A stretch of 64,000 nt of DNA from an uncultured Alphaproteobacteria bacterium (GTDB taxonomy: Bacteria > Pseudomonadota > Alphaproteobacteria > Rs-D84), in the NCBI GenBank assembly GCA_934232895.1, contig CAKQGH010000002.1, positions 15,287-79,286 of the forward strand, given 5' to 3'. Made by a program: the position numbers and the translations under genes. Below, one piece after another: positions 7,070 to 59,160 of this stretch. Each line of letters begins with the position of its first letter. Position 1 is the stretch's first letter. Under the pieces are notes generated by a model. That model had not been told where the DNA came from. It searched no databases and saw nothing but the letters and a program-made list of their open reading frames with translations.

Positions 7070-7636
7070 ATGCCAAGCAAAAAATTAGATTTTAAGACCG
7101 GACAATATGTTGTTTATCCAACCCAGGGCGTTGGTAAACTGGTCCGCACCGAAGAGCAAACAATCGGTGACCAGAAAATAAAGATGCTGGTAATTGATTT
7201 TGAGCGAAACCACATGACATTGCGTGTGCCGGTTGAACGTGCCGAGATTTCTGGGCTGCGCCCACTGACCACCGCCAAAAAAATGGACGAGGCAATCGCA
7301 TCGGCCAAGGGCAAGGCCGGCGCAAAGCGTATGATTTGGGCGCGTCGTGCGGCACAGTACGAGGAAAACATAAATTCCGGCGACCCCATGAAATTGGCCG
7401 AGGTTGTACGCGACCTGCAACGGCGCAGTGCGGCGGACACAATGACATTTTCGGCGCGTCAATTGTATCTGCGCGCGTTGGAACGTATGGCCCAGGAATT
7501 TGCCGTTCTGCATAAAATCGATTTGGATGCCGCGTCCGATAAAATAGAAGACATCTTGGGCATTCCCAAGGAAATAGACCTGAACGCCGCCGGTGTTGAT
7601 GACGACGACGAAATGGATGACGAAGATTCCGAATAA
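7070..7636 (+). CDS. CarD/CdnL-family transcriptional regulator (RNAP-interacting)
   Basis: N-terminal 'FKTGQYVVYPTQGVGKLVR' CarD_TRCF domain; acidic C-terminal tail. Alternative start ATG 7043. Confidence 0.75.
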   Translation: MPSKKLDFKTGQYVVYPTQGVGKLVRTEEQTIGDQKIKMLVIDFERNHMTLRVPVERAEISGLRPLTTAKKMDEAIASAKGKAGAKRMIWARRAAQYEENINSGDPMKLAEVVRDLQRRSAADTMTFSARQLYLRALERMAQEFAVLHKIDLDAASDKIEDILGIPKEIDLNAAGVDDDDEMDDEDSE

Positions 7637-7662
7637 AAACCGCCCCACGGGGCGGTTTTTAA
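7637..7662 (+). terminator. rho-independent terminator
   Basis: aaaaccgccccacggggcggttttt immediately after the stop. Confidence 0.7.
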
Positions 7663-8095
7663 TTAGAGAGCAAAGAGCAATGAGCAGAGAGCAATGAAAT
7701 CCTCTTCACTGGGCGAAGGGGTGTCCGCGCAAGCGGACGGGGTAGTGGTAAATATGTCCCCGCAGGGCAATGGTGACCCTCCTGCGCGGGGATGACAATT
7801 CTTTTTATGTGCTGTGTTCTGTATCTTCGTCGCTGACTAAGTTCTCCTCCTGTGGAGGAGTACCGCGTAGCGGGGTGGTCTTGAGAGTGCGCAAAGTTGT
7901 ACAAAGTTTCAAAAAACGACTACCCCGCCGGGCATATGCCCGGCACCCCTTCTGGCCATAAGGGGATTTAATTGCGTATCCCTGTTGTGGTCTAAATTCC
8001 CCTTCGCTGGCGAAGGGGTGGACGCGTAGCGGACGGGGTAGTGGTAAACAAGTCCCCGCAGGGACAAATAAAAAAACTCCATAAAAATCCCCGCA
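7663..8095. repeat. cluster of RPE-like short palindromic repeat units
   Basis: Units recurring elsewhere in the window: 'ccccttcgctggcgaaggggtg' (x2), 'gacggggtagtggtaaa' (x2), 'gtccccgcaggga' (x2), 'ctcctcctgtggaggag...gggtggtcttgagagtgc', and AGAGCAR heptamers after the stop. Confidence 0.8.
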
Positions 8096-8130
8096 ATGCC
8101 GCGGTGGGTGTGGCGCGGCGTAAAAAAAGA

Positions 8131-8247
8131 AGTGCCGAAAAAAACGGTGGGTTTTTTACGGCACTTTTATACGGAAATTATACCCAGAAATCCGCCAGTT
8201 GGTCAAGTGGTATTTATTGCGCAAAAAACCACCGTTTTTTTCGGCAA
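8131..8247 (+). promoter_or_regulatory. conserved attenuator-like 5' leader of Cys-rich protein gene (copy A)
   Basis: 'agtgccgaaaaaaacggtgg...cggcacttttat' hairpin+U-tract, then distal 'aaaccaccgtttttttcggcaa' that can alternatively pair with the 5' arm. Near-identical copy at 57997-58117 in the same position relative to another family member. Confidence 0.6.
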
Positions 8248-8275
8248 AGAACATAGCACCCACAGGGGGAATGAA

Positions 8276-9505
8276 ATGAATATGCTGCGTAAAATTTTTC
8301 TGGTTATGATTTGTGCATTGGTTATATACCCAGTCCACGCGGAGTTCTATGCCGGATACCGTAATGAATGTTGGGTTGATGACAAAGGCAGCGATGAATA
8401 CTGGTTTTGTGGATATCAGGCGGAATCGTGTCGAAGCAATGGGGCAACAAAGAAAAATAAAAAAAATTGGATATACGATGGCAAGGGTTTTGTACATGCT
8501 GGTCGAACATTTTGGTGTTGTGGTGGAACCGGCGAAAAGGAAGGCAAATTTGTCGAAGGACTAACATGGATAAAAAGTAGCGCGACGAAAACAAAGTCTG
8601 TTGGTGGTGGCACATGTGAATACACAGAAAGGACAACTGTGTGCGACACAACCGAGGCCGATGATTGCACGGTGCCAACCAAGTGTCCCAGCGGTAAAAT
8701 ACTGCGTAATAAAGAATGCGCGACATTATGTTCCAGTGGCCAGGGATTTCAAAGTGCAACATCCAACACATGCATAGCGTGCAGTGGCACTGACCGTGGT
8801 GTGGACACTAACAAAATATGCGTTGTATGTACCGGTGGGCAAAAATGGAATGGCACGCGGTGCGAGGCCCCCAAAGAGGAAACATGCACATCCGGCCAGG
8901 GCAAAGACAGCAACGGTAAATGCGTTGCGTGTTCTGGCGAAGACAAGGGGGTTGATGACAAGGGCAGTTGTGTTGTCTGTGCTCCTGGGCGGATTTGGGA
9001 CAGTGGTACCAAGGCTTGCAAGGACAAGCCCCAGGAAACCCCAAAGGAAGAACCGAAACAAGAAGAACCTGCACCTGAAGAAGCGGAATCATCTGATGAA
9101 TCAGAACCCGAGACGCCAAAATGCCAAAGTTCTGAATATTTATCACCCAAAAGTGGCAAGTGTGTCAGCAAATCGGCATCAAAACAATACTCGCGCGATA
9201 TGTTTGATTCGTGCTATGCGTGCCCAACCGATACGCGGTTCAAACGTTGTCTAGATTTCTTTCGCAACCCGCCAACCACACTAAAAGAATCGGACAAGAA
9301 GGTTTTGGTTTCATGTAATATTGACCCATCGGAATATGATTCTGATGCGGCCGGCAAAAGCAAGTTCCGGTTGATTGATAAGTTGGGTAAATTGGGTGGC
9401 AAGGGCAAAACCGGCAGCGTCCCAACCAAGGGCAATCCGGGAAATTTGTTGCAAGAATCAGCATACCGAGACAATGTTGCCACTGCTGGGGACTATGAAT
9501 TCTAG
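8276..9505 (+). CDS. secreted cysteine-rich repeat protein (CXXC / furin-like repeats). It is a paralog of the 20212-21411 gene
   Basis: RBS aggggga then ATG. Signal peptide MNMLRKIFLVMICALVIYPVHA. Shared blocks with the paralog: 'YWFCGYQAESC', 'FWCCGGTGEKEGKFVEGLTWIK', 'GGGTCEY', 'CTVPTKCPSGK', 'CVSKSASKQYSRDMFDSCYACPTDTRFKRCL'. Confidence 0.65.
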   Translation: MNMLRKIFLVMICALVIYPVHAEFYAGYRNECWVDDKGSDEYWFCGYQAESCRSNGATKKNKKNWIYDGKGFVHAGRTFWCCGGTGEKEGKFVEGLTWIKSSATKTKSVGGGTCEYTERTTVCDTTEADDCTVPTKCPSGKILRNKECATLCSSGQGFQSATSNTCIACSGTDRGVDTNKICVVCTGGQKWNGTRCEAPKEETCTSGQGKDSNGKCVACSGEDKGVDDKGSCVVCAPGRIWDSGTKACKDKPQETPKEEPKQEEPAPEEAESSDESEPETPKCQSSEYLSPKSGKCVSKSASKQYSRDMFDSCYACPTDTRFKRCLDFFRNPPTTLKESDKKVLVSCNIDPSEYDSDAAGKSKFRLIDKLGKLGGKGKTGSVPTKGNPGNLLQESAYRDNVATAGDYEF

Positions 9506-9519
9506 TACCAGATTTAGGT

Positions 9520-9795
9520 TATAGAGTTTTAAGAATGTGGTTCGCGTGTTGGCCTCTCTACGCAATCGCCCACGAAATAAAAAATTTCGTGGGTGGTTCC
9601 CGGAGGGGAATTTGTTTTTCACGTCGCGGGATGAATTCCCCTTCGCTGGCGAAAGGGTGTCCGCATACGCGGACGGGGTAGTGGTAAAACGACACCCCGG
9701 CACTCCGTGTCACCCCTCTGGCCAGAGGGGAACAAAGCAAGTGCGCCGAATGGCGCACACATTATTTGAACTTTGCACTTTGGTATTTGAACTTT
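9520..9795. repeat. RPE-like palindromic repeat cluster
   Basis: 'cccacgaaataaaaaatttcgtggg', 'ccccttcgctggcgaaagggtg', 'gacggggtagtggtaaaacgacaccccggcactccgtgtcacccctctggccagaggggaac'. Confidence 0.75.
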
Positions 9796-18611: not shown

Positions 18612-19592
18612 TAGTGTAAAAAAGAGCAATGAGCAGAGAGCAGAGAGCAATGAAGCGCGCCATTCGGCGTCTTATATTCTTGTCATTCCTGCGTAGGCAG
18701 GAATAGGGCCTTGGAAATTACTCTCACTTGGTGTTGTACAATATTTGGTAAAAAAGTGAATATCAATATCACTGTACACCGCAACATTCTGGGTTTGGCT
18801 CGTTGACACTCGCACTGTATAGTCCCTATTCCTGCCTGCGCAGGAATGACAATCTTTGGGTTCTGTCATTGCGAGCGGAGCGTGGCAATCCAGTAAACGA
18901 CACCCCGTCGCGTTGCGCCACCCCGGCTTTCCAGAGGGGAACAAAGCTCATCATCGTCGCGGAGCAAAATCCCCTTCGCTAAGCGAAGGGGTGACCACGA
19001 AGTGGGCGGGGTAGTGGTAAATACACCCCCGCGGGGCAATGGTGACCCTCCTGCGCCGGCATGACGTTTTTTTGTGCTGTGTCCCTGTATCCCCATCGCG
19101 GAGCAAGTTCCCCACCGGTGGAGGGGTGGCCGCCAGGCCGGGGTGGTCTTGAGAGTGCAATGTGGAATAAATGTAAGACAAAAGACCACCACTCCGCTGC
19201 GCGGTACTCCTCCACAGGAGGAGAACTTGGTATGCTCCCGTTGCGGACTTCTCCGCTGGCAGAACCCCGGGTCGGGGTGATAATTCTTTTTTTGGGGGGG
19301 CGCATCCCTAGCGTGGACTCTCACTTGCCGTCATACCGGCGCAGGCCGGTATCTATTGCCCCGCAGGGACAAAAAGACCACCCCGGCACTCCGTGCCACC
19401 CCTCCACCGGAGGGGAACTTAGTATGTACCGAGAATAAACAAAATTCCCCGTCGCTTGGCCCCCCACGCAAAAAAAAATTTCAATTTCGTGGGACCAGTG
19501 TCGTGGTGGCACGAAGTGCCGGGGTAGTGGTGATTGCGTGTTGCCGGCATCCAAAATAATTCCTGGTGCGGGCGGGGCGGGTGTGATATGGT
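18612..19592. repeat. ~1 kb intergenic hotspot made almost entirely of RPE-like palindromic units plus a MITE copy
   Basis: AGAGCAR heptamers, MITE (18682-18850), 'gtcattgcgagcggagcgtggcaatcca', 'tccccttcgctaagcgaaggggtg', 'ggggtagtggtaaa', 'gttccccaccggtggaggggtg', 'gtcataccggcgcaggccggtat', 'caccccggcactccgtgccacccctccaccggaggggaac', 'cccacgcaaaaaaaaatttcaatttcgtggg'. Confidence 0.85.
18682..18850. mobile_element. MITE-like element copy 1 (~169 bp, ~27 bp hairpin-forming terminal inverted repeats)
   Basis: TIRs 'gtcattcctgcgtaggcaggaataggg' / 'ccctattcctgcctgcgcaggaatgac'. The interior matches copies at 55576-55746 and 58808-58978. Confidence 0.8.
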
Positions 19593-20189: not shown

Positions 20190-20211
20190 ATCAATAAAAT
20201 GTAAATTTATA

Positions 20212-21411
20212 TTACATCGCCTGCATTTTGCTGACGGAGAAATCCAATTTCTTCGTCTTGCCCGAAACAACATTCGTCGGCAATGCAATGTCTTTGAGAG
20301 CATCCTCAATCGATGTCGTGCCCGTGGCAACACTGGTTCCGGTTGTGGCCGTGGTTCCGGTGGTTTTGGTCACGGTCGATATGTCATCCGCCATCACCTG
20401 GTCTGCAACTACCACATCGGCAACCTGCATCTGTTGCTCGAGGGCTTTTTTCAACTCATCATTGTCTAGTTTTATTGCTGCGGTTTCTGACAATTTTTTA
20501 TTGATTATACTGTTCGGCAAATCCAATTTTGCAAACACGGGCAATTTCCCAACCAATTCTGATTTCATTGTTTGTGCGTCTGCCTCTGCGTATTGGGCTT
20601 TCGTGACATTGCACGCCTTTAATGTTCCCTCTTGCGTTGATGTCAGCTTGTTGGCATCGGGGGCTGCACGGTATATATTCAGACAGTTTTTGAACCGCAC
20701 ATCGGACGAACACCCATAGCATTCATGCATCATATCGCTTGAGTATTGAACATTTTTGGATTTGCTGACGCACTTATTGCTCAGTGGCGATTTGTATTCG
20801 GTGCTTTTGCATTCGTCACTGGCTGTGATTTTTTTCCCTGAGTCTGCAGTTTTTGTGGTTTCTGTCTTTGGTTTCTCGGGCTCTGTGGCTTGCTTTTTCG
20901 GTGTATCGTCTTTCTTCGTCTCTGTGGTTTTAGGCGTTTCCTGTTTCACGGCGGCGCATTTGCCACCACTAACAACCTGGCCACTGGGGCATGATGTTGG
21001 AACCGTACAGGGTTTGTCCGATTCAACGCTGCCGCAAACATTGGTTGTCTTTTGATATGTGCACGTACCGCCGCCAACATCTATGGTCACATCTTCACTT
21101 TTTTTAATCCATTTTGCGCCAGCAACGAATTTACCCTGGTCAGTTTTGTTTCCATCGCAACACCAGTATTTGGTACCGTCTATGTCAACATCATCCCCGT
21201 GGTAATACCACAGCGATGGTTTATGACTTGATATATGTTTCAAACCAGCACAAGATTCTTTCTGGTTCCCACAAAAGTAGTATTGAACAGTGCTCTGTTT
21301 GGCGCCGTTTATATACCGAAAACATTCGGTACTAAAACCTGTTTTCCACCCAGCCTCTGCGGTGTTGGCGGTCAAAGCACAAATCAATAAAGGCAGAAAA
21401 ATCTTTCTCAT
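20212..21411 (-). CDS. secreted cysteine-rich repeat protein, paralog of the 8276-9505 gene
   Basis: Signal peptide; 'YYFCGNQKESC', 'YWCCDGNKTDQGKFVAGAKWIKK', 'GGGTCTY', 'CTVPTSCPSGQ', 'CVSKSKNVQYSSDMMHECYGCSSDVRFKNCL'. Confidence 0.65.
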   Translation of the reverse strand: MRKIFLPLLICALTANTAEAGWKTGFSTECFRYINGAKQSTVQYYFCGNQKESCAGLKHISSHKPSLWYYHGDDVDIDGTKYWCCDGNKTDQGKFVAGAKWIKKSEDVTIDVGGGTCTYQKTTNVCGSVESDKPCTVPTSCPSGQVVSGGKCAAVKQETPKTTETKKDDTPKKQATEPEKPKTETTKTADSGKKITASDECKSTEYKSPLSNKCVSKSKNVQYSSDMMHECYGCSSDVRFKNCLNIYRAAPDANKLTSTQEGTLKACNVTKAQYAEADAQTMKSELVGKLPVFAKLDLPNSIINKKLSETAAIKLDNDELKKALEQQMQVADVVVADQVMADDISTVTKTTGTTATTGTSVATGTTSIEDALKDIALPTNVVSGKTKKLDFSVSKMQAM

Positions 21412-30791: not shown

Positions 30792-32282
30792 ATGTTGCAC
30801 ACATCTGATTTTGATTTTGAATTGCCATCTGAATTGATTGCATCGCACCCGCTGGCGCGCCGTGACGCATCCCGTATGCTGGTGGTGAAAAGTTCCCCTC
30901 CGTTGGGGGGGTGTCGCGAATGCGACGGGGTGGTCAGAGATTCCGTAAATTACAGAACATTGCCATTTAACAGTAAATTAAAAGAAAAAGCACGCGCTTT
31001 GCGTCGCGCTGGCAGTTTGCCAGAAGTACTGTTATGGAAAGAAATCAAAAATCATCAATTGAACGGGTTGGATTTTGACAGACAGAAAGTCATAGGCGAT
31101 TATATAGTGGACTTTTTCTGTGCGTCCAGATTCGTCGTTCTGGAAATAGACGACAAAGCGACGCATGCTTTAAAAGCAGAATCCGATGCGGCGCGCGACG
31201 AGTATATGCGTGGCCTGAATCTCACTGTTATACGAATCCCGGCGGCGGATGTGTTGAAAGATGCACATGCGGTTTATCTGTGGCTCTCTAACCACCCCGC
31301 CTTGCAGGCGCCCCTCCAACGGAGGGGAACTTGTGTCGAATTATCTGACCGGCATATTCGGGATTTTTTGGATTATATTCGCCCGGGCGATGTTGTGGTG
31401 TTTAATAATTCGCGTGTTATTCCGGCGCGTTTTGATGCGACCGATGCCGCGGGGCATGCGTATGAAATCACACTGCACACCGCGGCGGGCGGCAAACTGT
31501 GGTGGGGCCTGTGCAAGAAATTCACCCGCATTGCGGTTGGCGACACATTGACCATGACCGATGGCACGCAAATCCGCGTGGTTGCAACCGACCCCGACAG
31601 TGGGTTAAAACTGGAATTTTTATGCGATGATGTGTTTGCGGTTCTGAATAAAATTGGCAAAATGCCATTGCCACCATATATGCATCGCGACCAGGAATAT
31701 TCCGACCGTGAACGGTATCAGACCGTGTATGCCGACCCAATTGGTTCAATGGCGGCGCCAACCGCGGGGCTGCATTTTACCCCAGAACTGATGGATGAAA
31801 TCACGCGTCGTGGTGCAACGATTGTAAAGGTCACACTGCACGTTGGTGCGGGCACATGGATGCCGGTCAAGACCGAGGATTTATCCCAACACAAAATGCA
31901 CAGCGAGTGGTGCCAGATTACCCCCGCCCAGGCGGATATTATAAACAATGCAAATCGCGTTATTGCGGTGGGTACGACATCAATGCGAACGTTGGAAAGT
32001 GCGGCAATGCGTAATCGTGAATTGCCGGAATCAGAGCGTGGCCACCGTGTTGTGCCGTTTTGTGATACGACCGATATATTTATTACACCGGGGTACACAT
32101 TTGGTGCGGTGGACGTGTTGCTGACGAATTTCCATTTGCCAAAATCTACATTATTTATGTTGGTTTCCGCGTTCGCTGGATTGGATGAAATGAAGGCCGC
32201 GTACGCGCATGCGGTCGCCGAAAAATACAGATTCTTTTCATACGGCGATTGTTGTTTGTTATTTAAAAAGGATGGGGAATAA
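30792..32282 (+). CDS. queA: S-adenosylmethionine:tRNA ribosyltransferase-isomerase QueA carrying a ~154 aa in-frame insertion
   Basis: QueA N-terminus 'DFDFELPSELIASHPLARRDASRMLVV', then the insertion, then 'IRPGDVVVFNNSRVIPARF...GTTSMRTLESAA...TNFHLPKSTL'. 496 aa versus ~345 typical. Confidence 0.85.
   Translation: MLHTSDFDFELPSELIASHPLARRDASRMLVVKSSPPLGGCRECDGVVRDSVNYRTLPFNSKLKEKARALRRAGSLPEVLLWKEIKNHQLNGLDFDRQKVIGDYIVDFFCASRFVVLEIDDKATHALKAESDAARDEYMRGLNLTVIRIPAADVLKDAHAVYLWLSNHPALQAPLQRRGTCVELSDRHIRDFLDYIRPGDVVVFNNSRVIPARFDATDAAGHAYEITLHTAAGGKLWWGLCKKFTRIAVGDTLTMTDGTQIRVVATDPDSGLKLEFLCDDVFAVLNKIGKMPLPPYMHRDQEYSDRERYQTVYADPIGSMAAPTAGLHFTPELMDEITRRGATIVKVTLHVGAGTWMPVKTEDLSQHKMHSEWCQITPAQADIINNANRVIAVGTTSMRTLESAAMRNRELPESERGHRVVPFCDTTDIFITPGYTFGAVDVLLTNFHLPKSTLFMLVSAFAGLDEMKAAYAHAVAEKYRFFSYGDCCLLFKKDGE
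30888..31349 (+). mobile_element. in-frame insertion inside queA: a DUF559 (Vsr/MutH-like endonuclease fold) domain followed by an RPE-like palindrome
   Basis: 'LPEVLLWKEIKNHQLNGLDFDRQKVIGDYIVDFFCASRFVVLEIDDKATH...RDEYMRGLNLTVIRIPAADV' DUF559 signature. RPE unit 'caccccgccttgcaggcgcccctccaacggaggggaac' at 31284-31330 translated in-frame. Confidence 0.7.
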
Positions 32283-40211: not shown

Positions 40212-40667
40212 TTATTTTATGCATGGCACAATCTTGCCGATGATTGTGCTGTTGCCACCGTATTGCAATTGATATTTATATCCACATGGAACCGGAATTG
40301 AAAACGACATATATCGTGTGGTATTCAGGTCGTCATCTTGGAACATATAGGTCATGACAATTTGGTCGTTGGCGTCCAGTATTTTTATACTGGCGGTTGC
40401 GTTCCATATTAATTTTATGTATCCCTGTAAAAACAGGTTTTCATTGGCGGTATATGTGCCGATGCCTGTAATGGCCGATGATCTTGCATAATCGGGCATT
40501 AAATTAAACACCGCATCGGCGCGTGCCAGCATTGTGCCGCCGGCGGTCACGCCATCGTGCACGCGAATGGTCTTGTTGGTGGTGTCAACGGTAATCTCGC
40601 CATCGGCCCCGGTAAAGTTTGCGTGCTCGTCGGCGGTCCCACGCCGAAACTGAATTTGTCTTGCCAT
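40212..40667 (-). CDS. small protein with phage tail-fibre-type N-terminal domain (MxxxIQxRRGT...)
   Basis: 'MARQIQFRRGTADEHANFTGADGEITVDTTNKTIRVHDGVTAGG' resembles the conserved N-terminus of phage tail fibre / Mtd-like proteins. Confidence 0.45.
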   Translation of the reverse strand: MARQIQFRRGTADEHANFTGADGEITVDTTNKTIRVHDGVTAGGTMLARADAVFNLMPDYARSSAITGIGTYTANENLFLQGYIKLIWNATASIKILDANDQIVMTYMFQDDDLNTTRYMSFSIPVPCGYKYQLQYGGNSTIIGKIVPCIK

Positions 40668-40908
40668 GTATTGGTCTCCTTGTGATTATATGGCAAGATG
40701 TTTGAAGGACCCGCCAAATGTTATTTTCTGTATGTGTGTTTTGGAAAACCGCATAACCGGCAAGATAAGTGCAACGAAATAAAAAAAAACGACCAAAATG
40801 GTCGCGGTCCTTATCTGGTTGCTTGGTGTGCATTATACCACAAATGCCCCCAAAAATCAATTGAAATTTGTTTTGAATTTATTCGTGGCATGGCGTATGA
40901 TTGACGCA

Positions 40909-42264
40909 ATGAAATGTTTTATATCTGCTTTTTTGTTGGGGGCGTTTATGCCGGCCGTCGCCGCCGCGGTGGACGCGGCCCCGGCCGCCGGCACAACTGA
41001 AATTACCATGACCACGACCCAGGCCATGCAACTGGCGGGAAAATTGGTACAATCGGGCGATATTGAACACGCAACCCAAATTTTAACTATGACGCCCAAC
41101 ACCGGAAACGGCGAACTGGAAACCGAGCGGTGGTTTTTGCTGGCGCAAATTGCATCGCGGCGGGGCGATATTGATGAGGCAATTCGCATTTATCAAAAAA
41201 TACTGGATGCACGCCCCAATGCGGCCCGCGTGCGGTTTGAATTGGCATTGTGCTATATGCACCAGGGCCGGTGGTCGCGTGCGGATTATCATCTGCGCCT
41301 GGCCATGGCGGGGGACGATTTGTCCGACGATGTAAAACGGATGATGAATTACTATCGCTATGTCGTGCGCCAGAACAAAAATTGGAACGTGTATTTTAAT
41401 TTTGGTGCCGCCCCCGACAATAACATAAACAACGCGACCGGCGGTGCAGAGTGTGTTATGACCATCTGGGGGGCGTTCTGTCGCGATTTGCCCGCGCCGG
41501 AATCGGCGGTTGGCACCAATTTCCAGCTGGGTGGTGATTACGAATTCAAATTATCAGACCGGTGGCGCTGGAAATCAGATGCGGGCATATACACAAATAT
41601 TTATAACAAACACCAATACGACGATTTGTATTTGTCCGCCGGGACCGGCCCGCGGTATGTATGGTCGCGTGGCGATGTGTGGTTGGCGGGAACGGTTGCG
41701 CGGCGCTGGTACGATTGGCGCCGGTATAATTGGTCGGCTGGGGCCAAGCTGAATGCTAATTATGATTTCACGCGCAAAATGTCGGGCGGGTTGACATTGT
41801 CGGCAATGAATAATCGCTATGATGAATATGGCGATTTCCTGGATGGAAAAACATACGGCGCGTCCGCCCGCATAGTGTATTCGTTTAACGCGGGGGTGTA
41901 TACGGTGCTGCGTGGTGGTTTTTCGCGTGAATTGGCGGCCAGCCCGACATATTCGTATCGCCAACCGAGCCTGTCCGTGGGCATAGGTGCGGAATTGCCA
42001 TGGGGATTTGGCATTTATGCCGAGCCCAGCATTTATTGGACACGATATGACGGCGCGCGTTGGGCGGTCCGTGACGGCCAAATCAGCGAGATTACCGAAC
42101 GCGATTTCACGCATCGGTATGCGGTGTCGGTGTCAAATAATAAACTGGATGTACTGGGGTTTGTGCCGACCATCACGGTCAGTTATACCCGTCGCGATTC
42201 CAATATGTGGCAGCGCGAGTTTAGCAAAACCGCCATTGAATTCACCATGATGCAACGGTTCTAA
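40909..42264 (+). CDS. outer-membrane protein with N-terminal TPR region and C-terminal beta-barrel (DUF560/Slam-like architecture)
   Basis: Signal peptide MKCFISAFLLGAFMPAVAAAV; TPR-like helices 'ALCYMHQGRWSRADYHLRLA'; ~300 aa of alternating beta-strands ending in Phe. Confidence 0.4.
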   Translation: MKCFISAFLLGAFMPAVAAAVDAAPAAGTTEITMTTTQAMQLAGKLVQSGDIEHATQILTMTPNTGNGELETERWFLLAQIASRRGDIDEAIRIYQKILDARPNAARVRFELALCYMHQGRWSRADYHLRLAMAGDDLSDDVKRMMNYYRYVVRQNKNWNVYFNFGAAPDNNINNATGGAECVMTIWGAFCRDLPAPESAVGTNFQLGGDYEFKLSDRWRWKSDAGIYTNIYNKHQYDDLYLSAGTGPRYVWSRGDVWLAGTVARRWYDWRRYNWSAGAKLNANYDFTRKMSGGLTLSAMNNRYDEYGDFLDGKTYGASARIVYSFNAGVYTVLRGGFSRELAASPTYSYRQPSLSVGIGAELPWGFGIYAEPSIYWTRYDGARWAVRDGQISEITERDFTHRYAVSVSNNKLDVLGFVPTITVSYTRRDSNMWQREFSKTAIEFTMMQRF

Positions 42265-42451
42265 ACAGAGAGCAGAGTGTAGAGAGCAGAGAGCAATGAA
42301 AAGTGAGCAAGTGACAGAGCGATAAAGTGATACAGTTTTTTCTACGAACATAATTCATTTTCTGCGGAATATTATTTTTAAGTCGTCATACCGACGAAGG
42401 TCGGTATCCATTGCCCCGCAGGGACTGATAATACCACTACCCCGTCCGCCC
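42265..42451. repeat. left ~185 bp inverted repeat (IR-L) of the invertase/adhesin cassette
   Basis: Reverse complement matches 45338-45523 at ~90% identity, including the unique stretch 'aagtgagcaagtgacagagcgataaagtgatacag...ttctgcggaatattatttttaagtcgtcataccgacgaagg...ctgataataccactaccccgtccgccc'. Confidence 0.8.
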
Positions 42452-42596
42452 AGGGCGTCCACCCCTTCGCCAGCGAAGGGGAATTTGATAGAGTCACCCT
42501 CTTGTCATTGCGAGCGCAGCGTGGCAATCCATAAAACGACACCCCGGCACTGCGTGCCACCCCTCTCGCCAGAGGGGAACTTTCATTGCTCTCTAT
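42452..42596. repeat. RPE-like unit cluster inside the cassette
   Basis: 'caccccttcgccagcgaagggg', 'gtcattgcgagcgcagcgtggcaatcca', 'caccccggcactgcgtgccacccctctcgccagaggggaac'. Confidence 0.75.
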
Positions 42597-42626
42597 GAAA
42601 AAACCGCCCGGTGGGGCGGTTTCGAA
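42597..42626 (-). terminator. rho-independent terminator of the adhesin gene
   Basis: On the minus strand: cgaaaccgccccaccgggcggtttttt. Confidence 0.65.
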
Positions 42627-42648: not shown

Positions 42649-44352
42649 TTAAAACAATTTGAATTTATAGTTCGTGCCGGCACGGAACGCAACATCTGCG
42701 TCAGAGATACCAGCGCCAACATTGACAGACCAGTTATTGGTCAGACCCATCGCGGCACCAAATGCCACCGCGGATTGGCTGTTATAGTTGCCAAAACCGG
42801 CGCCAACGGACACTTCGCCGCGTTCAACACCAGATACGGCGACCGACGACAATGCGACCGAGCTGGCAATACCCGCAGACAGGTTTTTGTCCAGTTTATC
42901 GATTCTTTGGTCGGTGTATGCATTTGCAGCCGCCAGCGAGAATGCCGCGCGTTCATCCGCGTATGCTTTCGCGCTGTTCAATGTCATCGCATCTTGGGCA
43001 ACCGCATATTCTTTTGCGGTGTTCAGTGTTGCTTCGTCAGCCAAGGCAAACGCTTCACGAACGGCGGTATCTTTTTCATCTGTGTATGTTTTTGCAGATG
43101 CCAAAGTTGCCTGGTCCCCAGCGGTCATATCAGAACGAATTTGATCATCAGCTGCGGCAAATTCACTGCGAACTGCGTCGTCCCCAGCGGTCATATCAGA
43201 ACGAATTTGATCATCAGCTGCGGCAAATTCACTGCGAACTGCGTCGTCCCCGGCGGTCATATCAGAACGAATTTGATCATCAGCTGCGGCAAATTCACTG
43301 CGAACTGCATCGTCCCCGGCGGTCAAAGCATCATTGATTACGCCACCGTCGGCAACCGATGCGGAAATAGCGTCGTTTGCACGATTGTCAATTGTATCGG
43401 TAATCGGCGCATCAAAGATTTCGCGCGCGGCCGCCTGGCGTTCATTGTCCGCGGTCCATGCATTGGACGTGGTTTCCTGGTTCGCCAATGCGGCGTTCCA
43501 TTGTTCGCCCGCGTTTGCAATTGTTGCATAACGTTCGTTCAGTTCGTTGACCGTATTTGTGTCGTTTTCAAACACTGTATTGGCGGCATTGAATAATGGT
43601 GCTTCTGCGGCATATTCCGCACCTGTTTCGGTCTTGGCGGCATCAACACTTGCCGTGTCGGTTGTGAACGCCGTCTGCATTTCGTTGAATGCGTTTTCCA
43701 ATGCCGAACCCGGTTCTGGATCAACCAGTCCGCCACGGTCGTCGACCAATCTGCTGCCATCCGCATTCAGACGAAATTCACGACCTTCTGCATCTGTGTA
43801 TTTATAGCGTGTGCCATCAAATGTCGGGGCGTCACCGTTTTTCACGGTGATGGTTGCATCGTCTCCAGATACGTATGTGCTGTTCAGTGTAACATCCTGG
43901 GAAAAATCAGGTACAGATTCGCCCAATGTCACATCTTCGCCCGCGCTGTTTTTGTATTTGTAATTTGCGCGATCCATTGTTGCGCCTGCAACAATGTCCT
44001 GGGTCGTGGTGATGTCACCAGTTGCGCCGGATGTGCCGATATAATCGGACTGTTGCGGCAGGCTGTCCGTATTTTCTGGGTCGTATGCCTGCCAGTTGCC
44101 AGCGGTGTCTTTGTATTTAAAGTCGTCCGCGTTTGGTCCATCGGCATAGTTTTTGGTAACCGTACTGCCATTATAATCAGTATATGTGTAATTATAATTT
44201 GCAGAATCCAGGTCTGTGCCAGCATTCTGTTCTGTGCCGTTTGCGGTCGTATATTTACCAGCAAATGTCACATCAGTAGTTGCCGCGTGTGCGCCGGCGA
44301 ACGCCAAAATGCCCGCCAGTGAAAACGCAGTCAAAACCAAAGGTTTTTTCAT
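42649..44352 (-). CDS. trimeric autotransporter adhesin (type Vc; YadA-like C-terminal membrane anchor)
   Basis: Signal peptide MKKPLVLTAFSLAGILAFAGAHA; stalk with neck-like 'TLxSAKxYTD' repeats and three identical 22-aa repeats. C-terminus 'IDKLDKNLSAGIASSVALSSVAV...GEVSVGAGFGNYNSQSAVAFGAAMGLTNNWSVNVGAGISDADVAFRAGTNYKF' matches the YadA_anchor pattern. RBS aagagga. Confidence 0.8.
   Translation of the reverse strand: MKKPLVLTAFSLAGILAFAGAHAATTDVTFAGKYTTANGTEQNAGTDLDSANYNYTYTDYNGSTVTKNYADGPNADDFKYKDTAGNWQAYDPENTDSLPQQSDYIGTSGATGDITTTQDIVAGATMDRANYKYKNSAGEDVTLGESVPDFSQDVTLNSTYVSGDDATITVKNGDAPTFDGTRYKYTDAEGREFRLNADGSRLVDDRGGLVDPEPGSALENAFNEMQTAFTTDTASVDAAKTETGAEYAAEAPLFNAANTVFENDTNTVNELNERYATIANAGEQWNAALANQETTSNAWTADNERQAAAREIFDAPITDTIDNRANDAISASVADGGVINDALTAGDDAVRSEFAAADDQIRSDMTAGDDAVRSEFAAADDQIRSDMTAGDDAVRSEFAAADDQIRSDMTAGDQATLASAKTYTDEKDTAVREAFALADEATLNTAKEYAVAQDAMTLNSAKAYADERAAFSLAAANAYTDQRIDKLDKNLSAGIASSVALSSVAVSGVERGEVSVGAGFGNYNSQSAVAFGAAMGLTNNWSVNVGAGISDADVAFRAGTNYKFKLF
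43123..43320. repeat. 3 x 66 bp perfect tandem direct repeat inside the adhesin stalk coding region
   Basis: Unit 'ggtcatatcagaacgaatttgatcatcagctgcggcaaattcactgcgaactgcgtcgtcccc[a/g]gc' x3, encoding AGDDAVRSEFAAADDQIRSDMT. Confidence 0.9.
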
Positions 44353-44386
44353 GTTTTTTCCTCTTATTTAAATTAATTTAAACCGT

Positions 44387-44412: not shown

Positions 44413-44438
44413 CTTACACAAACGAACGTTTGTGTAAG
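44413..44438. promoter_or_regulatory. perfect 26 bp palindrome with 12-2-12 geometry (hix/gix-like candidate recombinase or operator site)
   Basis: cttacacaaacgAAcgtttgtgtaag. Confidence 0.5.
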
Positions 44439-44503: not shown

Positions 44504-44588
44504 TTTGTTGTGGAATAATATGATTTGAATATAGAAAAAAACAGTTGATTTAATCGTTCGTTTAAAATGACAGAAATAGGAGGAAAAA

Positions 44589-45242
44589 ATATCATTCATA
44601 GGATATATTCGTGTCAGTTCAAATAAACAAACTGTGGCACATCAACGTTTTGAAATTAGCCAGTTTGCTGCTGCACACAAAATCACAATAGACCGGTGGG
44701 TCCAAGAAACGGTATCGTCGCGCCAACCGTTGGATAAACGACAGTTGGGCGAATTATTGCATGAATTGAAACATGAAGATGTTTTGATTTCGTGTGAAAT
44801 ATCGCGCCTGGGGCGTTCGTTGCTGGAGGTAATGCGAATCTTGGAAACATGTATGAACAGTGGCGCCCAAGTTTGGACAATCAAAGAAAATTACCGATTG
44901 GGCGATGATATACAAAGCAAAGTTATGGCGTTTGCGTTCGGACTGGCCGCAGAAATTGAGCGAAATTTAATATCGCAACGCACTCGGGCGTCGTTGAACA
45001 ATATTCGCGCCGCAGGCAAAAAGTTGGGGCGCCCATTTTCGGCACAATCAAAAAAACTGAAACTGACGCGCAATGCACATAAAATAAAGCAATTACTGGA
45101 TGCGGGGGTATCACGATATAAAATTGCCCAAGTTATGCATGTCCAGCCTATAACGGTGAATCGTTTTACCAAGCGCATGGGGTGGGATAAATTTATTAGA
45201 GAGCAGGGTGCATCCGTCTCCGCTGACGCTCCGCCGCGATAA
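44589..45242 (+). CDS. serine recombinase of the DNA invertase/resolvase family (Hin/Gin/Pin-like)
   Basis: In-frame N-terminus 'IGYIRVSSNKQ' (catalytic Ser motif) lies upstream of the track's GTG start (44634). It is preceded by AGGAGG at 44577-44582 but has no ATG/GTG/TTG; a possible ATA start is at 44589. 'ISRLGRS', 'EIERNLISQRTRASL', 'GRP', C-terminal HTH. Confidence 0.8.
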   Translation: MSFIGYIRVSSNKQTVAHQRFEISQFAAAHKITIDRWVQETVSSRQPLDKRQLGELLHELKHEDVLISCEISRLGRSLLEVMRILETCMNSGAQVWTIKENYRLGDDIQSKVMAFAFGLAAEIERNLISQRTRASLNNIRAAGKKLGRPFSAQSKKLKLTRNAHKIKQLLDAGVSRYKIAQVMHVQPITVNRFTKRMGWDKFIREQGASVSADAPPR

Positions 45243-45262
45243 AGAGAGCAGAGAGCAATGAC

Positions 45263-45290
45263 GCGCGCCGGTGGCGCGCCTGTTTTTTAT
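45263..45290 (+). terminator. rho-independent terminator after the recombinase gene
   Basis: gcgcgccggtggcgcgcctgtttttt. Confidence 0.7.
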
Positions 45291-45337
45291 CGTCGCGGAC
45301 CAAGTTCCCCTCCGGTGGAGGGGTGGTGCGAAGCACC

Positions 45338-45523
45338 GGGCGGACGGGGTAGTGGTATTATCAGCCCCTGCGGGGCAATGGTGGCCCTCCTTCGTCGGTA
45401 TGACGACTTAAAAATAATATTCCGCAGAAAATGAAATATGTTCGTAGAAAAAAACTGTATCACTTTATCACTCTGTCACTTACTCACTTTCATTGCTCTT
45501 TGCTCTCTGATCTTTGCTCTCTG
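45338..45523. repeat. right ~185 bp inverted repeat (IR-R) of the invertase/adhesin cassette
   Basis: Reverse complement of 42265-42451. Confidence 0.8.
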
Positions 45524-45527
45524 AATA

Positions 45528-45556
45528 AGAAACGCGCCGGTGGCGCGTTTCTTATT
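45528..45556. terminator. bidirectional terminator (aagaaacgcgccggtggcgcgtttctt) at the 3' end of the tolC-like gene
   Basis: Perfect hairpin flanked by A/T runs on both sides. Confidence 0.65.
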
Positions 45557-55290: not shown

Positions 55291-55858
55291 CAGGAACCAC
55301 CCACAAAATCTGACGATTTCGCGGGGCCCGGGTCGGGGTGGCACGGAGTGCCGGGGGAGGGTTATTGTTAAAGAGCAATGATTGTGCTCGCATTTGCTCG
55401 CAACACCATATACCTGGATTCCGGGGTCAAGCCCCGGAATGACAAGGTCTGGGTACTTCTTTCCTTTTACGGATATTATTAAAATTTTGGTTGTGGACTT
55501 TCACGTATGTGTCATCCCGGTGCTTGACACCGGGATCCAGGTGAATATATGTGCGCGGAACGCGCCTATCTTATTGTCATTCCTGCGTAGGCAGGAATAG
55601 GGACTATACAGTGCGAGTGTCAACGAGCCAAACACAGAATATTGCGGAATACGGTAATATTGGTATACGCCACCTTTTACCAAATATTGTACAACAATGA
55701 ACGAGAGCAATTTTCAAGACCCTATTCCTGCCTACGCAGGAATGACAATAGCAAGCGCGCCGAATGGCGCGCAACATTGCGCTCTGCTCTCCTGGTCGCG
55801 GCGGAGCGTCAGCGGAGACGGATGCTCTTTGCTCTCCCGCCCCTGTGGGGCGGGCGGA
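55291..55858. repeat. repeat-rich intergenic region (RPE-like units and a MITE copy)
   Basis: AGAGCAR-like motif; 'tcattccggggcttgaccccggaatcc'-like hairpins; MITE at 55576-55746; 'gctctgctctc' repeats. Confidence 0.7.
55576..55746. mobile_element. MITE-like element copy 2 (interior in the opposite orientation to copy 3)
   Basis: TIRs 'gtcattcctgcgtaggcaggaataggg'/'ccctattcctgcctacgcaggaatgac'. Confidence 0.8.
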
Positions 55859-57976
55859 TTAGTCGCCGGCATAGAATATTGGTACGCCGGTTGGTAAATT
55901 AAAGCATCCGTGTTTGTCGCAAAACAATGTGCCGTCCTTGCCTCCCTTCATATAACATTGTTTTATATCAGTTGAACCAGCATCGCTGGTCGAGCCCGCC
56001 GGACACGCGCCGCAAGATTTACCATCACCCTTCTTGTAATAACCAGCATCGCACCCCAGGGTATAGGTACATTTTGCCTTGGTGGTGGCATCATAATTAA
56101 CCCTGGATGCACCGGCCGTAAACTTACCATTATCGGTCGTTGGTTTCTTGTCGCTGTCGTTGCACAGGGCATAGCACGATGTTTCATCACCTGTTCCACC
56201 ATCCGATTTGTTCCAATAATCCGTTTTGCTATCACTGTCCGTTAACTCGCTGCACGATTTGCACTTTTGGGCCTCAACGCTCATATCCAACCGGGCATAA
56301 CGATAATACTGTGCTTTACACGATAATTCTACCTGGCATAAACTGCCAATCTTTCTGGTGACAGTTGTGGCCGCACCAGATTGCAATCGCCACGTACCAT
56401 TGTTGCCAGATTTTGCATTCAAATCCGCAACGCGCTCCGAACATTTAGCATAACAATTGTCGGCGCTCTCGCGTGGTAAATTAGAATGCTTATAATAATT
56501 CGTCACAGGGTTGGAACAAACGCCCCCATTCTGTAAACAAACCTCTACATTGGAACATTCGTGCGCCACAGGGTCATTGTCCGCACTATACTGTCCATCC
56601 TTAACCGGCTTGCATGTGCCATCCTGGGCGGCATATCCCAAGATACAACGCGTGACATTTATCTCGGCATCGTTCCATTTTGTGTTGCCATTGTTCTTGT
56701 CACCAGACGCGTATGTTTTGGTTATGGTTGCTGTTCCAATTTCATTGCCTGTACCATTATAAAGCGTCACGCCAGTTGACACACACTTGCACCCAGTATT
56801 TGCATTCCAGTCCTCTTTGTCCGCGTTCCATGTAATATTGGTGCCACTGATTGTGTTCGTACTGCCCCCTGTGCAGTCCAACAGGTCCGCATTGCATTTT
56901 CCAGTATCCGATATACATGTACCATATTTACGGCCGGTACAGTGGTCATTATCTGTCTTTACTGGTGTTTGCAGGTGGTATCCCGCCGAGCATTCGTATA
57001 CGCGCAATGAGGATGAAGGATATGTTCCACTGGTTTCATTCAAAATCGTGTATCCCTTGGTCGCGTTCGTCCCCTCTGGGAACCCAGTTGTCTGTTCTTG
57101 GGTATAACGAAAACAACCTGTTTTACCCTCGGTAGCATCTATGGAAGAAGTGCGACACTCGTCAAAAGACAGTGCCGAGTTGACACAACGATAAAAGGTT
57201 GTCGACGGGCCACCAGTGGGACTTCTCAAAGTATATGAGCATACGTGTTTTCCACTTGGGCATGAATGCGGCGTGACCAGTTTATACCCCTCGCACTTGT
57301 TCGTTGAATTCTGACATGTTTTCGGAATGCATTCCTTGGGATAGGTTACGGTAGATTCCTCGTATGTCGCAACACCAACCAATTTGGCACTGTCAGAACC
57401 ACATGTTGCAACACAACTATTACTATCAAACGTACCGCCCTGTCCACTGGTCCAATAATTGGTATATGTTTTTCCATCTATGGTTATTTGTAAACTCGAA
57501 CATGCCGGGCAAGTATATCCTGAGCCATTGTATACCATGTAATGATTGCTATCACAGCGCAAACTGTACGAACATTTACTTTTCGTTGTGGCGTTATAGT
57601 ATACTTTCTCCTCACTGCTCACCTTACAATACCCGCCGTCTACTTTGCCATAGTACGGGCAATCGGTTGTATTTTTCTTGGCATTACAATCCGCATAACA
57701 CACACTGGCTATTTTTGGCGTGTCGTCGCCATCCGACTTATTCCAATAGCCTTTATTGTTTTTATCATCCACCAGCGTATCACACGATAGGCAAGTTCCA
57801 CCAGTTCCATAGCTATTTGCATCACAGCCGATACATGTCCCCAACGTTGACCACCCACACCCCATGCCCTTACAAATATAGTCTTTTTCAATATCCTCAC
57901 ATCTTTGTTCTGCAACCGCCAACTTTATGTGACCAACAAATATTGCGAATATCGCTAGCAATAATATCTTTTTCAT
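55859..57976 (-). CDS. large secreted cysteine-rich repeat protein (705 aa; CXXC-rich; duplicated 'YWNKSDG' module)
   Basis: Signal peptide MKKILLLAIFAIFVGHIKLAVA; >70 Cys; internal duplication of the 'C..C..L.D....K..YWNKSDG' module. Confidence 0.6.
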   Translation of the reverse strand: MKKILLLAIFAIFVGHIKLAVAEQRCEDIEKDYICKGMGCGWSTLGTCIGCDANSYGTGGTCLSCDTLVDDKNNKGYWNKSDGDDTPKIASVCYADCNAKKNTTDCPYYGKVDGGYCKVSSEEKVYYNATTKSKCSYSLRCDSNHYMVYNGSGYTCPACSSLQITIDGKTYTNYWTSGQGGTFDSNSCVATCGSDSAKLVGVATYEESTVTYPKECIPKTCQNSTNKCEGYKLVTPHSCPSGKHVCSYTLRSPTGGPSTTFYRCVNSALSFDECRTSSIDATEGKTGCFRYTQEQTTGFPEGTNATKGYTILNETSGTYPSSSLRVYECSAGYHLQTPVKTDNDHCTGRKYGTCISDTGKCNADLLDCTGGSTNTISGTNITWNADKEDWNANTGCKCVSTGVTLYNGTGNEIGTATITKTYASGDKNNGNTKWNDAEINVTRCILGYAAQDGTCKPVKDGQYSADNDPVAHECSNVEVCLQNGGVCSNPVTNYYKHSNLPRESADNCYAKCSERVADLNAKSGNNGTWRLQSGAATTVTRKIGSLCQVELSCKAQYYRYARLDMSVEAQKCKSCSELTDSDSKTDYWNKSDGGTGDETSCYALCNDSDKKPTTDNGKFTAGASRVNYDATTKAKCTYTLGCDAGYYKKGDGKSCGACPAGSTSDAGSTDIKQCYMKGGKDGTLFCDKHGCFNLPTGVPIFYAGD

Positions 57977-57996: not shown

Positions 57997-58117
57997 TTGC
58001 CGAAAAAAACGGTGGTTTATTTTCGACACAAAATAAAATTGACATCAGGCGGGAAACTGGGCAAAATTTTGGCATAAAAGTGCCGAATCGAAACCACCGT
58101 TTTTTTCGGCACTTTTT
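57997..58117 (-). promoter_or_regulatory. conserved attenuator-like 5' leader (copy B) upstream of the 705-aa Cys-rich gene
   Basis: The reverse complement aligns with 8131-8247: identical 20-nt 5' arm, 12-nt 'cggcacttttat', 22-nt 3' arm, and the same spacing to the RBS/ATG. Confidence 0.6.
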
Positions 58118-58274
58118 TATTCACATTTTCGCCCGGATTTCTGCGCCACTGCGCCGTTTTTTTAGGCAATTTTGTTTTCGCCTCAAACCCGCAGAAATCC
58201 GGGGGCCAAAATATTGACAAAATCATTGTGTTGTATTACAATTTAGTGTGTAAAACCAACCAAGGGGTACAATT

Positions 58275-58720: not shown

Positions 58721-58745
58721 AAAACGCCCCACGGGGCGTTTTTAT
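58721..58745 (+). terminator. rho-independent terminator
   Basis: aaaaacgccccacggggcgttttt. Confidence 0.7.
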
Positions 58746-58807
58746 TAGAGCATAGATAACAGAGCATAGAGAATAGATAGTGCGCCATCCGGCGCACTTG
58801 CCATGTT

Positions 58808-58978
58808 GTCATTCCTGCGTAGGCAGGAATAGGGGCTTGAAAATTGCTCTCGTTCGTTGTTGTACAATATTCAATAAAAATAGGTTGATACCAATATTAC
58901 CGTATTCCGCAATAGTCTGTGTTTGGCTCGTTGTCACTCGCATTGTATGGTCCCTATTCCTGCCTACGCAGGAATGAC
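58808..58978. mobile_element. MITE-like element copy 3
   Basis: Same TIRs; the interior is the reverse complement of the copy 2 interior. Confidence 0.8.
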
Positions 58979-59160
58979 AATTTTTTGGGAATTAGTGTTT
59001 CCTGTCATTACGAGCAGAACGTGGCAATCCAGAAAACGACACCCCGGCACTTCGTGCCACCCCGGCTTCCCGGCGGAAAACCTGGATTGTGCTTGTCGCG
59101 GTAAAATTTTTATTGTATTTTCTGGTGTGCGCACTACAATGGCAATGAATAATAACCCAG
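58979..59160. repeat. RPE-like unit cluster
   Basis: 'cctgtcattacgagcagaacgtggcaatccagaaaacgacaccccggcacttcgtgccaccccggcttcccggcgg'. Confidence 0.7.

Follow-up and report, generated by a model that had tools for sequence, protein, structure and literature searches.

An element with inverted arms and an outward-facing promoter before secreted cysteine-rich genes of gut Alphaproteobacteria: a possible invertible promoter seen in its OFF state

Introduction

In Mycoplasma penetrans, as described in PMC2268961 after Horino et al. 2003, the mpl (P35) lipoprotein genes are scattered over the chromosome, and each has its own small promoter cassette, bounded by inverted repeats and switched independently of the others. 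A comparable arrangement is considered here for an element of 114 base pairs (bp) that occurs twice in a 64,000-nucleotide (nt) stretch, hereafter the window, of contig CAKQGH010000002.1 from an uncultured gut Alphaproteobacteria bacterium, each time just upstream of a gene for a secreted, cysteine-rich protein. We tentatively favour a reading in which this element is a compact invertible promoter (inverton) that switches the gene behind it and is seen in its OFF state. It shares with mpl a per-gene promoter cassette between inverted repeats at genes for surface proteins; unlike mpl, for which both orientations have been demonstrated and nearby tyrosine recombinases proposed, it offers no flipped copy and no linked recombinase. 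The mpl cassette measures about 135 bp with 12-bp repeats, against a core of 78 bp and repeats of 18 bp here.

The polysaccharide promoter invertons of Bacteroides fragilis (Coyne et al. 2003, as described in PMC2268961) are served by a global serine recombinase, Mpi, through a repeat consensus shared by many unlinked loci. The likeness to our element lies in a common inverted-repeat consensus at unlinked loci, a promoter inside, a gut commensal as bearer and surface targets, and the B. fragilis recombinase acts globally, not beside each switch; recombinases that serve several loci are described for the mpl switches of M. penetrans as well (PMC2268961). The two differ in phylum, repeat sequence and target genes, and inversion is proven there, not here. 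Bacteroides switches are also roughly twice as long.

In the fimS switch of Escherichia coli, as outlined in PMC2784873, the inverted repeats enclose a promoter from which a surface-structure gene is driven when the segment lies in one orientation only. Our element likewise holds a promoter between inverted repeats beside a gene for a surface or secreted protein. The fimS repeats are 9 bp long and bound a segment of 314 bp, and the recombinase genes fimB and fimE lie adjacent to it. The cwpV switch of Clostridioides difficile, which depends on RecV, is of another kind: a repeat and the inner sequence adjacent to it are proposed to form an intrinsic terminator in the OFF orientation only, in a segment of 195 bp (PMC2784873). 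That segment is free of promoters and lies downstream of one, whereas the element described here contains its promoter.

A sequence-only reading of the window had proposed that the stretch before the two cysteine-rich genes is a leader RNA of the attenuator or riboswitch type, with a terminator-like hairpin 5' of the gene and an alternative long-range pairing, as is usual for such RNAs.

Results

The two copies, read directly and aligned, share a 114-bp module, copy A at 8133-8246 on the + strand and copy B at 58111-57998 on the - strand. The near-identity of the two leaders, with common 5', central and 3' blocks, had been noticed from the sequence alone and is real: 8131-8249 (+) and 58115-57995 (-) are 79% identical, and the 20-nt 5' block, the block cggcacttttat and the 22-nt 3' block are the same in both. 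Each copy carries the exact 18-nt arm TGCCGAAAAAAACGGTGG twice, in inverted orientation, with exactly 78 nt between (18/18 positions identical). When the 19-mer GTGCCGAAAAAAACGGTGG was searched with up to three mismatches, exactly four sites were found in the 64 kb, at 8132-8150 (+), 8229-8247 (-), 57997-58015 (+) and 58094-58112 (-), that is two per copy, inverted and spanning 116 nt each time; 0.09 sites are expected, and four were reached in 0 of 100 shuffles. The same pair of copies is listed by the repeat search of the window (I5). According to the 19-mer and arm searches, the left arm (IR-L) of copy A lies at 8133-8150 (+) and its right arm (IR-R), an exact inverted copy of IR-L, at 8229-8246 (-), while copy B has its gene-distal left arm at 58094-58111 (-) and its gene-proximal right arm at 57998-58015 (+). 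Between them lie the cores, the segments that we propose to be invertible, at 8151-8228 in copy A and, from the alignment of copies, at 58016-58093 in copy B. The arm sequence is the same in all copies with readable arms but for one outermost base in two related loci (L116 and L117), and the core has an equal length in all copies of the A and B types and in a third type, L055, described below.

Each terminal block of the sequence-only reading proved to be half of an imperfect palindrome. The left arm and an inner stretch ending in CGGCAC form hairpin 1, and an inner TGYCG followed by an A-rich stretch forms hairpin 2 with the right arm. Both palindromic sites are laid out as TGCCG, A-tract, AAAC, a 4-nt centre (CACC or GGTG), GTTT, T-tract and CGGCA, and their asymmetric centres, GGTGG and CCACC, run in opposite directions. 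The inverted repeats, 18 bp long and 78 bp apart, adjoin the genes at 20-28 nt 5' of the start codons. The spacing to the gene, first given as about 20 nt in both cases, is similar but not the same, since 28 nt separate the 3' block from the ATG in copy A and 20 nt in copy B.

The element holds one promoter-like site per copy by consensus scan, and this site points away from the gene. In copy A it is the sigma-70-like TTGACC-18-TATAAT at 8177-8206 (-), with 11/12 consensus matches, and it is the sole promoter-like site in 7600-8400 on either strand, the sense strand of gene A included; in copy B it is TTGACA-17-CAAAAT at 58039-58067 (+), with 10/12. What had been taken for a conserved centre of the leader, cccagNNNcccgcc, is the spacer of the opposite-strand promoter of copy A. 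This putative promoter, called from its match to the consensus, is retained in each of the three types (TTGACG-18-TAAAAT in L055), with hexamer positions that agree within 1 nt. No promoter comparable to it faces gene A or gene B; a weak sense promoter with 9/12 matches lies upstream of element B. A candidate gene-facing -10, TATTTA, is changed to TATTTG in 3 of 7 A-type copies. Other gene-facing promoters were looked for by eye and rejected: an extended -10 (TGGTATTTA) has a position that is A in some A-type copies and G in others, a sigma-54 promoter (GG-N10-GC) would have a spacing 1-2 nt too short, and the EcfG-type motif (GGAAC...CGTT) is absent.

The left palindromic site of copy A (8132-8164, the arm plus the inner half GTTTTTTACGGCAC) is terminator-like on both strands. 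On the + strand hairpin 1 reaches -21 kcal/mol (z = -7.0) and is followed by UUUUAU, so that the local hairpin with a U-run proposed for the 5' block holds; on the - strand, in a fold of 8175-8120 (-), it reaches -17.5 kcal/mol (z = -6.0) and is again followed by a U-run. The latter corresponds to an A-run of the + strand at 8122-8131, UUCUUUUUUU on the - strand, which would be the terminator tail for outward transcripts of copy A and has equivalents in copy B and L055. In copy B, hairpin 1 with UUUUUUAUU (58080-58122, + strand; -19.4 kcal/mol, z = -5.2) forms the corresponding putative terminator for the outward promoter. Hairpin 1 begins about 12 nt past the -10 hexamer and about 5 nt past the predicted start, and because hairpin and U-run follow so closely, the outward promoter would yield only a terminated stub. 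The right palindromic site of copy A (8217-8247, the inner half TTGCGCAAAAAA plus the arm, centre AAAC-CACC-GTTT) gives as RNA a weak hairpin 2 of -5.4 kcal/mol (z = -0.3), about that of shuffled sequence, and the hairpin 2 that the right arm of copy B forms with its inner half (57997-58028) is moderate, at -10.5 kcal/mol (z = -3.4). As predicted from sequence, the region is thus a two-way terminator-like hairpin with a strong outward promoter and no comparable promoter towards the gene.

In all four A-type neighbourhoods, where the element follows CarD, rubrerythrin, FKBP or prfA, the upstream gene is co-directional with the cysteine-rich gene. Because this neighbour runs the same way, the outward promoter of the A type would have no gene to serve.

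Comparison of the three types suggests that the arms are conserved as sequence with a fixed geometry and not as a structure. Between types they agree in 18 of 18 positions, while the identity of the 78-nt interior, whose length never changes, falls to 59% (A against B), 49% (B against L055) and 37% (A against L055); the main survivors inside are the two hexamers (-35 and -10) of the outward promoter, together with a few bases of its spacer. Within the sites, only the outer half and the asymmetric centre stay constant among copies; the inner half-sites drift. Between the window and L125, the housekeeping flanks are 91% identical, the intergenic stretch that borders the left arm on its outer side has diverged, by eye, by about 20%, and the arms and core differ at 5 of 114 positions, three of which fall in the inner half of hairpin 2.

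Pair counts over twelve distinct copies gave no covariation for any of the three candidate helices, a result that is either uninformative or negative. Of the 18 pairs that join the arms in the long-range helix, 17 do not vary in any copy, and no compensatory change occurs. In hairpin 1 the substitutions of the variable half break pairs; two changes affect both sides, each in a single sequence, and in 11 pairs the only departures are cells left unpaired. Hairpin 2 has no compensatory change, and the compensatory changes that a shared RNA might be expected to show across copies are therefore missing as support for any of these helices. Since the arms are invariant at a fixed spacing while the interior is not, the pattern points to a protein that recognises a DNA sequence rather than an RNA fold.

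Gene A (8276-9505, + strand) encodes a secreted cysteine-rich protein of 409 amino acids (aa) with a conserved signal peptide and a mosaic, hypervariable mature part, and gene B (55859-57976, - strand) one of 705 aa that is not detectably related to it. Both proteins have signal peptides and consist of 6-7% cysteine. Their coding regions had been described as diverged members of a family; they do differ, but common descent is undetectable (BLASTP E = 0.25), and Pfam finds no domain in either. Exact database look-ups of protein A and of its homologue P0001 returned no record. Three other cysteine-rich genes of the window (6412+, 21411- and 24194+) lie behind no such element, although one is clearly paralogous to A (E = 8e-42). 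Because these three do without it, the element is not a universal leader of the cysteine-rich family, and it follows neither protein family strictly; what holds is its tie to secreted cysteine-rich genes.

We also considered a coding role for the element, as an open reading frame (ORF; 8096-9505) stays open across copy A and into gene A. In copy B the frame is closed by a TAG 18 nt upstream of the ATG, and because of this stop we regard the open frame across copy A as incidental. The ATG at 8096 has given rise, as an annotation artefact, to public gene calls with a spurious N-terminal extension of 60 aa (P0024, P0003, P0004 and P0007).

To follow the element beyond the window, homologues of protein A (P0001-P0013, 39-100% identity) and of protein B (P0017-P0023) were traced to their contigs. 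It stands upstream at every homologue locus fetched, for A at 39-77% and for B at 49-73% protein identity, always with both arms exact, an equal span and the promoter directed away from the gene. A scan of reference genomes (596 Gb) with a 17-mer gave at least 112 matches, mostly due to chance as the pattern is too short; among the matches listed, the real elements are L041, L055 and L079, all in metagenome-assembled genomes of gut Alphaproteobacteria. With a 20-base pattern, metagenome contigs gave one match, L118, an A-type copy in native orientation that the end of its contig truncates, and the scan of viral contigs gave no element. L055, L079 and L118, found independently of the proteins, also carry the element 5' of secreted cysteine-rich genes. 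No element was seen elsewhere in about 200 kb of surveyed DNA, and no extra copy in flanks reaching up to 20 kb. The genomes of the relatives were assembled from Hadza, Nepali and other human samples and from chicken. The copies are therefore not spread over random contexts in the manner of a dispersed repeat, every one found being 5' of a secreted cysteine-rich gene. As a shared cis element of such genes the module stands as first proposed, although the RNA mechanism assigned to it is not supported.

Two of the relatives depart from the common form. L055 is a third and very diverged type, 5' of another secreted cysteine-rich gene; its sole promoter-like site points away, towards a divergent ssb gene, and its hairpin 2 is a perfect 15-bp stem (15-4-15; -20.3 kcal/mol). 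L041, in Candidatus Enterousia avistercoris, has a single site. There a gene-facing promoter, TTGCAA-17-TAAAAT, is followed after 14 nt by the hairpin (TGCCGAAAACAAAC-CAC-CGTTTTTTTCGGCA), a ribosome-binding site and a gene for a secreted protein. In both loci, which belong to two other genera, the site-bearing gene adjoins ssb (L041 3350-3800; L055 5289-5819); ssb is co-directional in L041, with a terminator and the gene-facing promoter between, and divergent in L055.

Discussion

The architecture is that of an inverton, because inverted repeats bracket a promoter that faces away from a surface-protein gene without another promoter. We infer that a recombinase would recognise the two palindromic sites, whose centres CACC and GGTG are oppositely oriented, and flip the 78-bp core between them. 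The arms may well be the protein-binding sites brought together in synapsis, because both their sequence and their spacing are conserved. In the native orientation, taken as OFF, the outward promoter would run into hairpin 1 and its U-run and produce a terminated stub, and on the sense strand hairpin 1 with UUUUAU would stop read-through from upstream. In the flipped orientation, taken as ON, the promoter would face the gene and the sense terminator would be replaced by a weak hairpin without a U-run, so that the mRNA would start about 5 nt before the 5' hairpin and continue into a free ribosome-binding site. In silico inversion of the core leaves the left sense-strand hairpin at -8.9 kcal/mol (z = -1.1) in place of -21, with no U-run behind it, as in cwpV, where the terminator likewise belongs to one orientation. 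The junctions predicted for the flipped state are CGGTGG/TTTTTTGCGCAATAAATACC and GTGCCGTAAAAAAC/CCACCGTTTTTTT (the slash marks the join), and ACGGTGGTTTTTTGCGCAATAAATACCACTTG is an example of a 31-mer across a flipped junction. The fixed order of promoter, hairpin and ribosome-binding site in L041 matches the predicted ON state.

As to the enzyme, the site centre AAAC-C-AC-C-GTTT has the geometry of the crossover sites of Hin, Gin, Cin and Pin (the Din family), AAAC-N4-GTTT, of which AAACC-AA-CGTTT is an example (PMC3241671, Table 3). In the arms, as in the palindromic hix, gix, cix and pix, a specific outer block and an A-tract precede AAAC, which is separated from GTTT by four central bases; pixR reads ...CCCAAACC AA CGTTTATG... 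(PMC3241671, Table 3), and the arms here read ...GAAAAAAACG GT GG.. and AAACC AC CGTTTTTTTCGG. Unlike Din sites (12-2-12, TTC---AAAC- NA -GTTT---GAA), they have half-sites of 14-15 bp and not 12, AC and not NA at the core, and TGCCG in place of the outer TTC. By these features the arm sites resemble those of the Din family but are not members of it. Din systems, moreover, invert about 1-4 kb and need a Fis-bound enhancer, against a core of 78 bp here. The window does encode a Gin-like serine invertase (44634-45242), for which Gin invertase gives the best matches to solved structures, and a partial XerC/D-like protein (from 63304 to the end of the window); no copy of the element adjoins either gene. 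The motif AAACSNNSGTTT occurs four times in the window against 1.07 expected. Three occurrences fall within these elements, and the fourth is a perfect 26-bp palindrome, CTTACACAAACG-AA-CGTTTGTGTAAG, at 44413-44438, about 200 bp upstream of the invertase gene.

Several observations weigh against inversion. No flipped copy, the defining mark of an inverton, was seen: all 16 copies that could be read directly are native; they comprise 11 of the A type (two partial and one from a translated ORF only), four of the B type and L055. Further contigs are indicated by ORFs with an extended N terminus, which would not stay open in the flipped orientation (P0024 on 5 contigs, P0004 on 6 and P0007 on 2), for at least 20 native contigs, and a search of 5.8 billion proteins with the 149-aa ORF of a flipped copy A, of low power, returned only two element-spanning ORFs, both native. 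These orientation data come from consensus assemblies and report the majority state only, in which a minority ON population would be invisible; many known switches are mostly OFF, and cwpV is ON in about 5% of cases (PMC2784873). No recombinase is linked to any copy, none being found in the flanking gene lists of related loci, and the palindrome beside the invertase has an outer half-site, CTTACAC, that differs from that of the arms (TGCCGAAA). The core is small, as 78 bp (97 bp from centre to centre) is shorter than in the documented cases checked and far from the roughly 1 kb that Hin inverts; loops of about 100 bp do form in Hin invertasomes, assisted by HU (PMC3798978). In L055 the inner half of the left site is missing, and the divergent ssb gene could simply be what the outward promoter serves. 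Finally, the promoters and terminators are called by consensus in an organism that is uncultured.

It is possible, though we hold it to be unlikely, that the element is a fixed DNA module that never inverts, in which a dimeric protein bound to the two sites, perhaps looping the 97 bp between them, governs both the outward promoter and a weak, unrecognised one that faces the gene. The conserved arm sequence and fixed spacing would suit such a protein, as would the palindromic nature of each site, which in L055 is a perfect 15-4-15, and the constant orientation in every copy seen. The lone site of L041, just downstream of a promoter, occupies the typical position of an operator, for which a partner site is unneeded. 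Such a module would however require a gene-facing promoter, and none is conserved, the candidate -10 being variable; it would leave unexplained why a near-consensus promoter that makes only a stub is kept in three diverged types; and the drift of the inner half-sites, with only the outer half-site and the centre invariant, is unusual for a symmetric operator.

A broader version of this idea, which we regard as rather improbable, is that the element never inverts and combines a constitutive outward promoter, giving only a terminator-hairpin RNA of about 45 nt next to every surface-protein gene, with arms read by a dedicated protein (or with the RNA acting as a decoy) to gate a cryptic promoter facing the gene. 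It would then serve uncultured gut Alphaproteobacteria as a cis code, common to a whole regulon, for their hypervariable secreted proteins.

Slightly less probable still is that the element is a tiny RNA gene, in which the outward promoter, hairpin 1 and the U-run produce a hairpin RNA of about 45-50 nt with a CCACCG loop. This RNA would be a regulator or a decoy and might, for example, titrate a protein whose other target is the similar hairpin of the mRNA leader. The A and B types do have all three parts, promoter, hairpin and U-tail, in conserved form, and the 21-nt AAACCACCGUUUUUUUCGGCA would occur in both divergent transcripts. Yet such an RNA would offer no single-stranded seed, L055 has no hairpin on that side, the mRNA that should carry the partner hairpin has no visible promoter, and hairpin 2 of copy A is unstable. 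The pair counts given above show no covariation, and Rfam has no match: at the gathering threshold only two tRNAs of the window are recognised, and permissive E-values bring up nothing better than a plant miRNA model, which scores 28 bits where 150 are required and is not credible.

We consider it very improbable that the element works as a sense-strand attenuator or riboswitch, with hairpin 1 as the terminator and the pairing of the 5' and 3' blocks as the alternative, as the sequence-only reading had it. The two structures exist on paper: hairpin 1 is stable in the sense strand and is followed by UUUUAU, the long pairing of the blocks is real in the fold with a helix of 18 bp, whole leaders folding with it at -44 and -48 kcal/mol (z = -3.1 and -4.3), and the B copy has the weak sense promoter upstream. 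The order of the parts is nevertheless wrong, because transcription reaches the 3' block only some 60 nt past the terminator U-run, too late to pre-empt termination. The A copy has no sense promoter upstream, the arms are invariant and without covariation, no Rfam family matches, and no pocket is conserved, the interior where a ligand would bind being the least conserved part (37-59%) apart from the hexamers of the opposite-strand promoter. The attenuator-like look is real, and it seems better explained by the orientation-dependent terminator of a switch.

Least probable of all is a Correia-like miniature inverted-repeat transposable element with a chance promoter, for although the 18-bp terminal inverted repeats, the length of about 114 bp, the internal promoter, the presence of several copies per genome and a genome rich in other dispersed repeats would suit one, the flanks when compared show no target-site duplication, every copy has a single orientation and a near-equal distance to the start codon of a secreted cysteine-rich gene, no copy in another context and no empty site was found, and the types differ by 40-60% inside and by 0% in the arms, unlike a recently spread family.

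Whichever way it works, a module of about 114 bp marks mosaic, hypervariable genes for secreted cysteine-rich proteins, and its exact 18-mer is a probe for the whole regulon in any genome, which also supports read-level orientation assays in existing metagenomes. If inversion is true, the element would be among the smallest promoter switches known, with recombination sites that double as orientation-dependent terminators, and phase variation of the Bacteroides and Mycoplasma type would extend to a lineage without a described case. If inversion is excluded, the strongly conserved promoter of a stub RNA would need a new explanation.

Other features of the locus

Near copy B, at 58151-58168, lies a degenerate third arm, TGCCTAAAAAAACGGCGC, followed by CAGAAATCCGGG; the arrangement is similar to how an A-type element begins and may be what is left of a partial copy after decay. 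The degenerate arm sits within a 14-bp inverted repeat (58132-58145 / 58190-58203) upstream of copy B and is conserved in the related loci L123-L125. On a larger scale, 176-nt inverted repeats (55573-55748 and 58806-58981; 91% complementary) flank gene B, element B and a gene for a protein of 147 aa. In L125 the 3-kb block of gene B is oppositely oriented relative to LemA, and because of this reversal a large inversion appears to separate that genome from the window.

Gene A and its relatives vary in ways of their own. The window and L113 are 98.5% identical in 3 kb of flanking sequence and 98.3% identical in gene A outside a stretch of about 350 nt after the signal peptide (window 8316-8666; L113 3041-3418), which cannot be aligned and looks like a hypervariable cassette. 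The gene of L122 (10367-11288) is chimeric: it has an A-type element, signal peptide and 5' end, and its 3' part is 91-92% identical to the family member at 20212-21411 of the window (compared over 20211-21009), which itself has no element. Judged by these alignments, the gene A family is mosaic and recombining.

Many intergenic regions of the window contain GC-rich, hairpin-forming composite dispersed repeats (families D2-D9), at 7637-8063, 9612-9733, 18667-19441, 42288-42601, 45199-45550, 55561-55836 and 58737-59101; the 480 bp that precede copy A are among these regions, and L079 and L115 have such repeats as well.

The invertase gene at 44634-45242 shows no ATG, GTG or TTG before the codon of the catalytic serine. 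A 33-nt inverted repeat (44351-44383 / 44560-44592) spans the starts of this gene and of the divergent gene for a YadA-anchor adhesin (42649-44352), which has three tandem repeats of 66 nt (43108-43330), and the two genes together are flanked by 124-nt inverted repeats (42336-42459 / 45330-45453; 92% complementary).

Elsewhere, the queA gene (QueA, 30792-32282; Queuosine_synth) carries a DUF559 domain at residues 62-161. A small ORF at 40212-40667 has an Mtd_N (major tropism determinant N-terminal) domain and adjoins a Slam-like gene for surface-lipoprotein assembly at 40798-42264, and a related genome has a reverse transcriptase gene (L119, 913-1938); together these hint at a diversity-generating retroelement.

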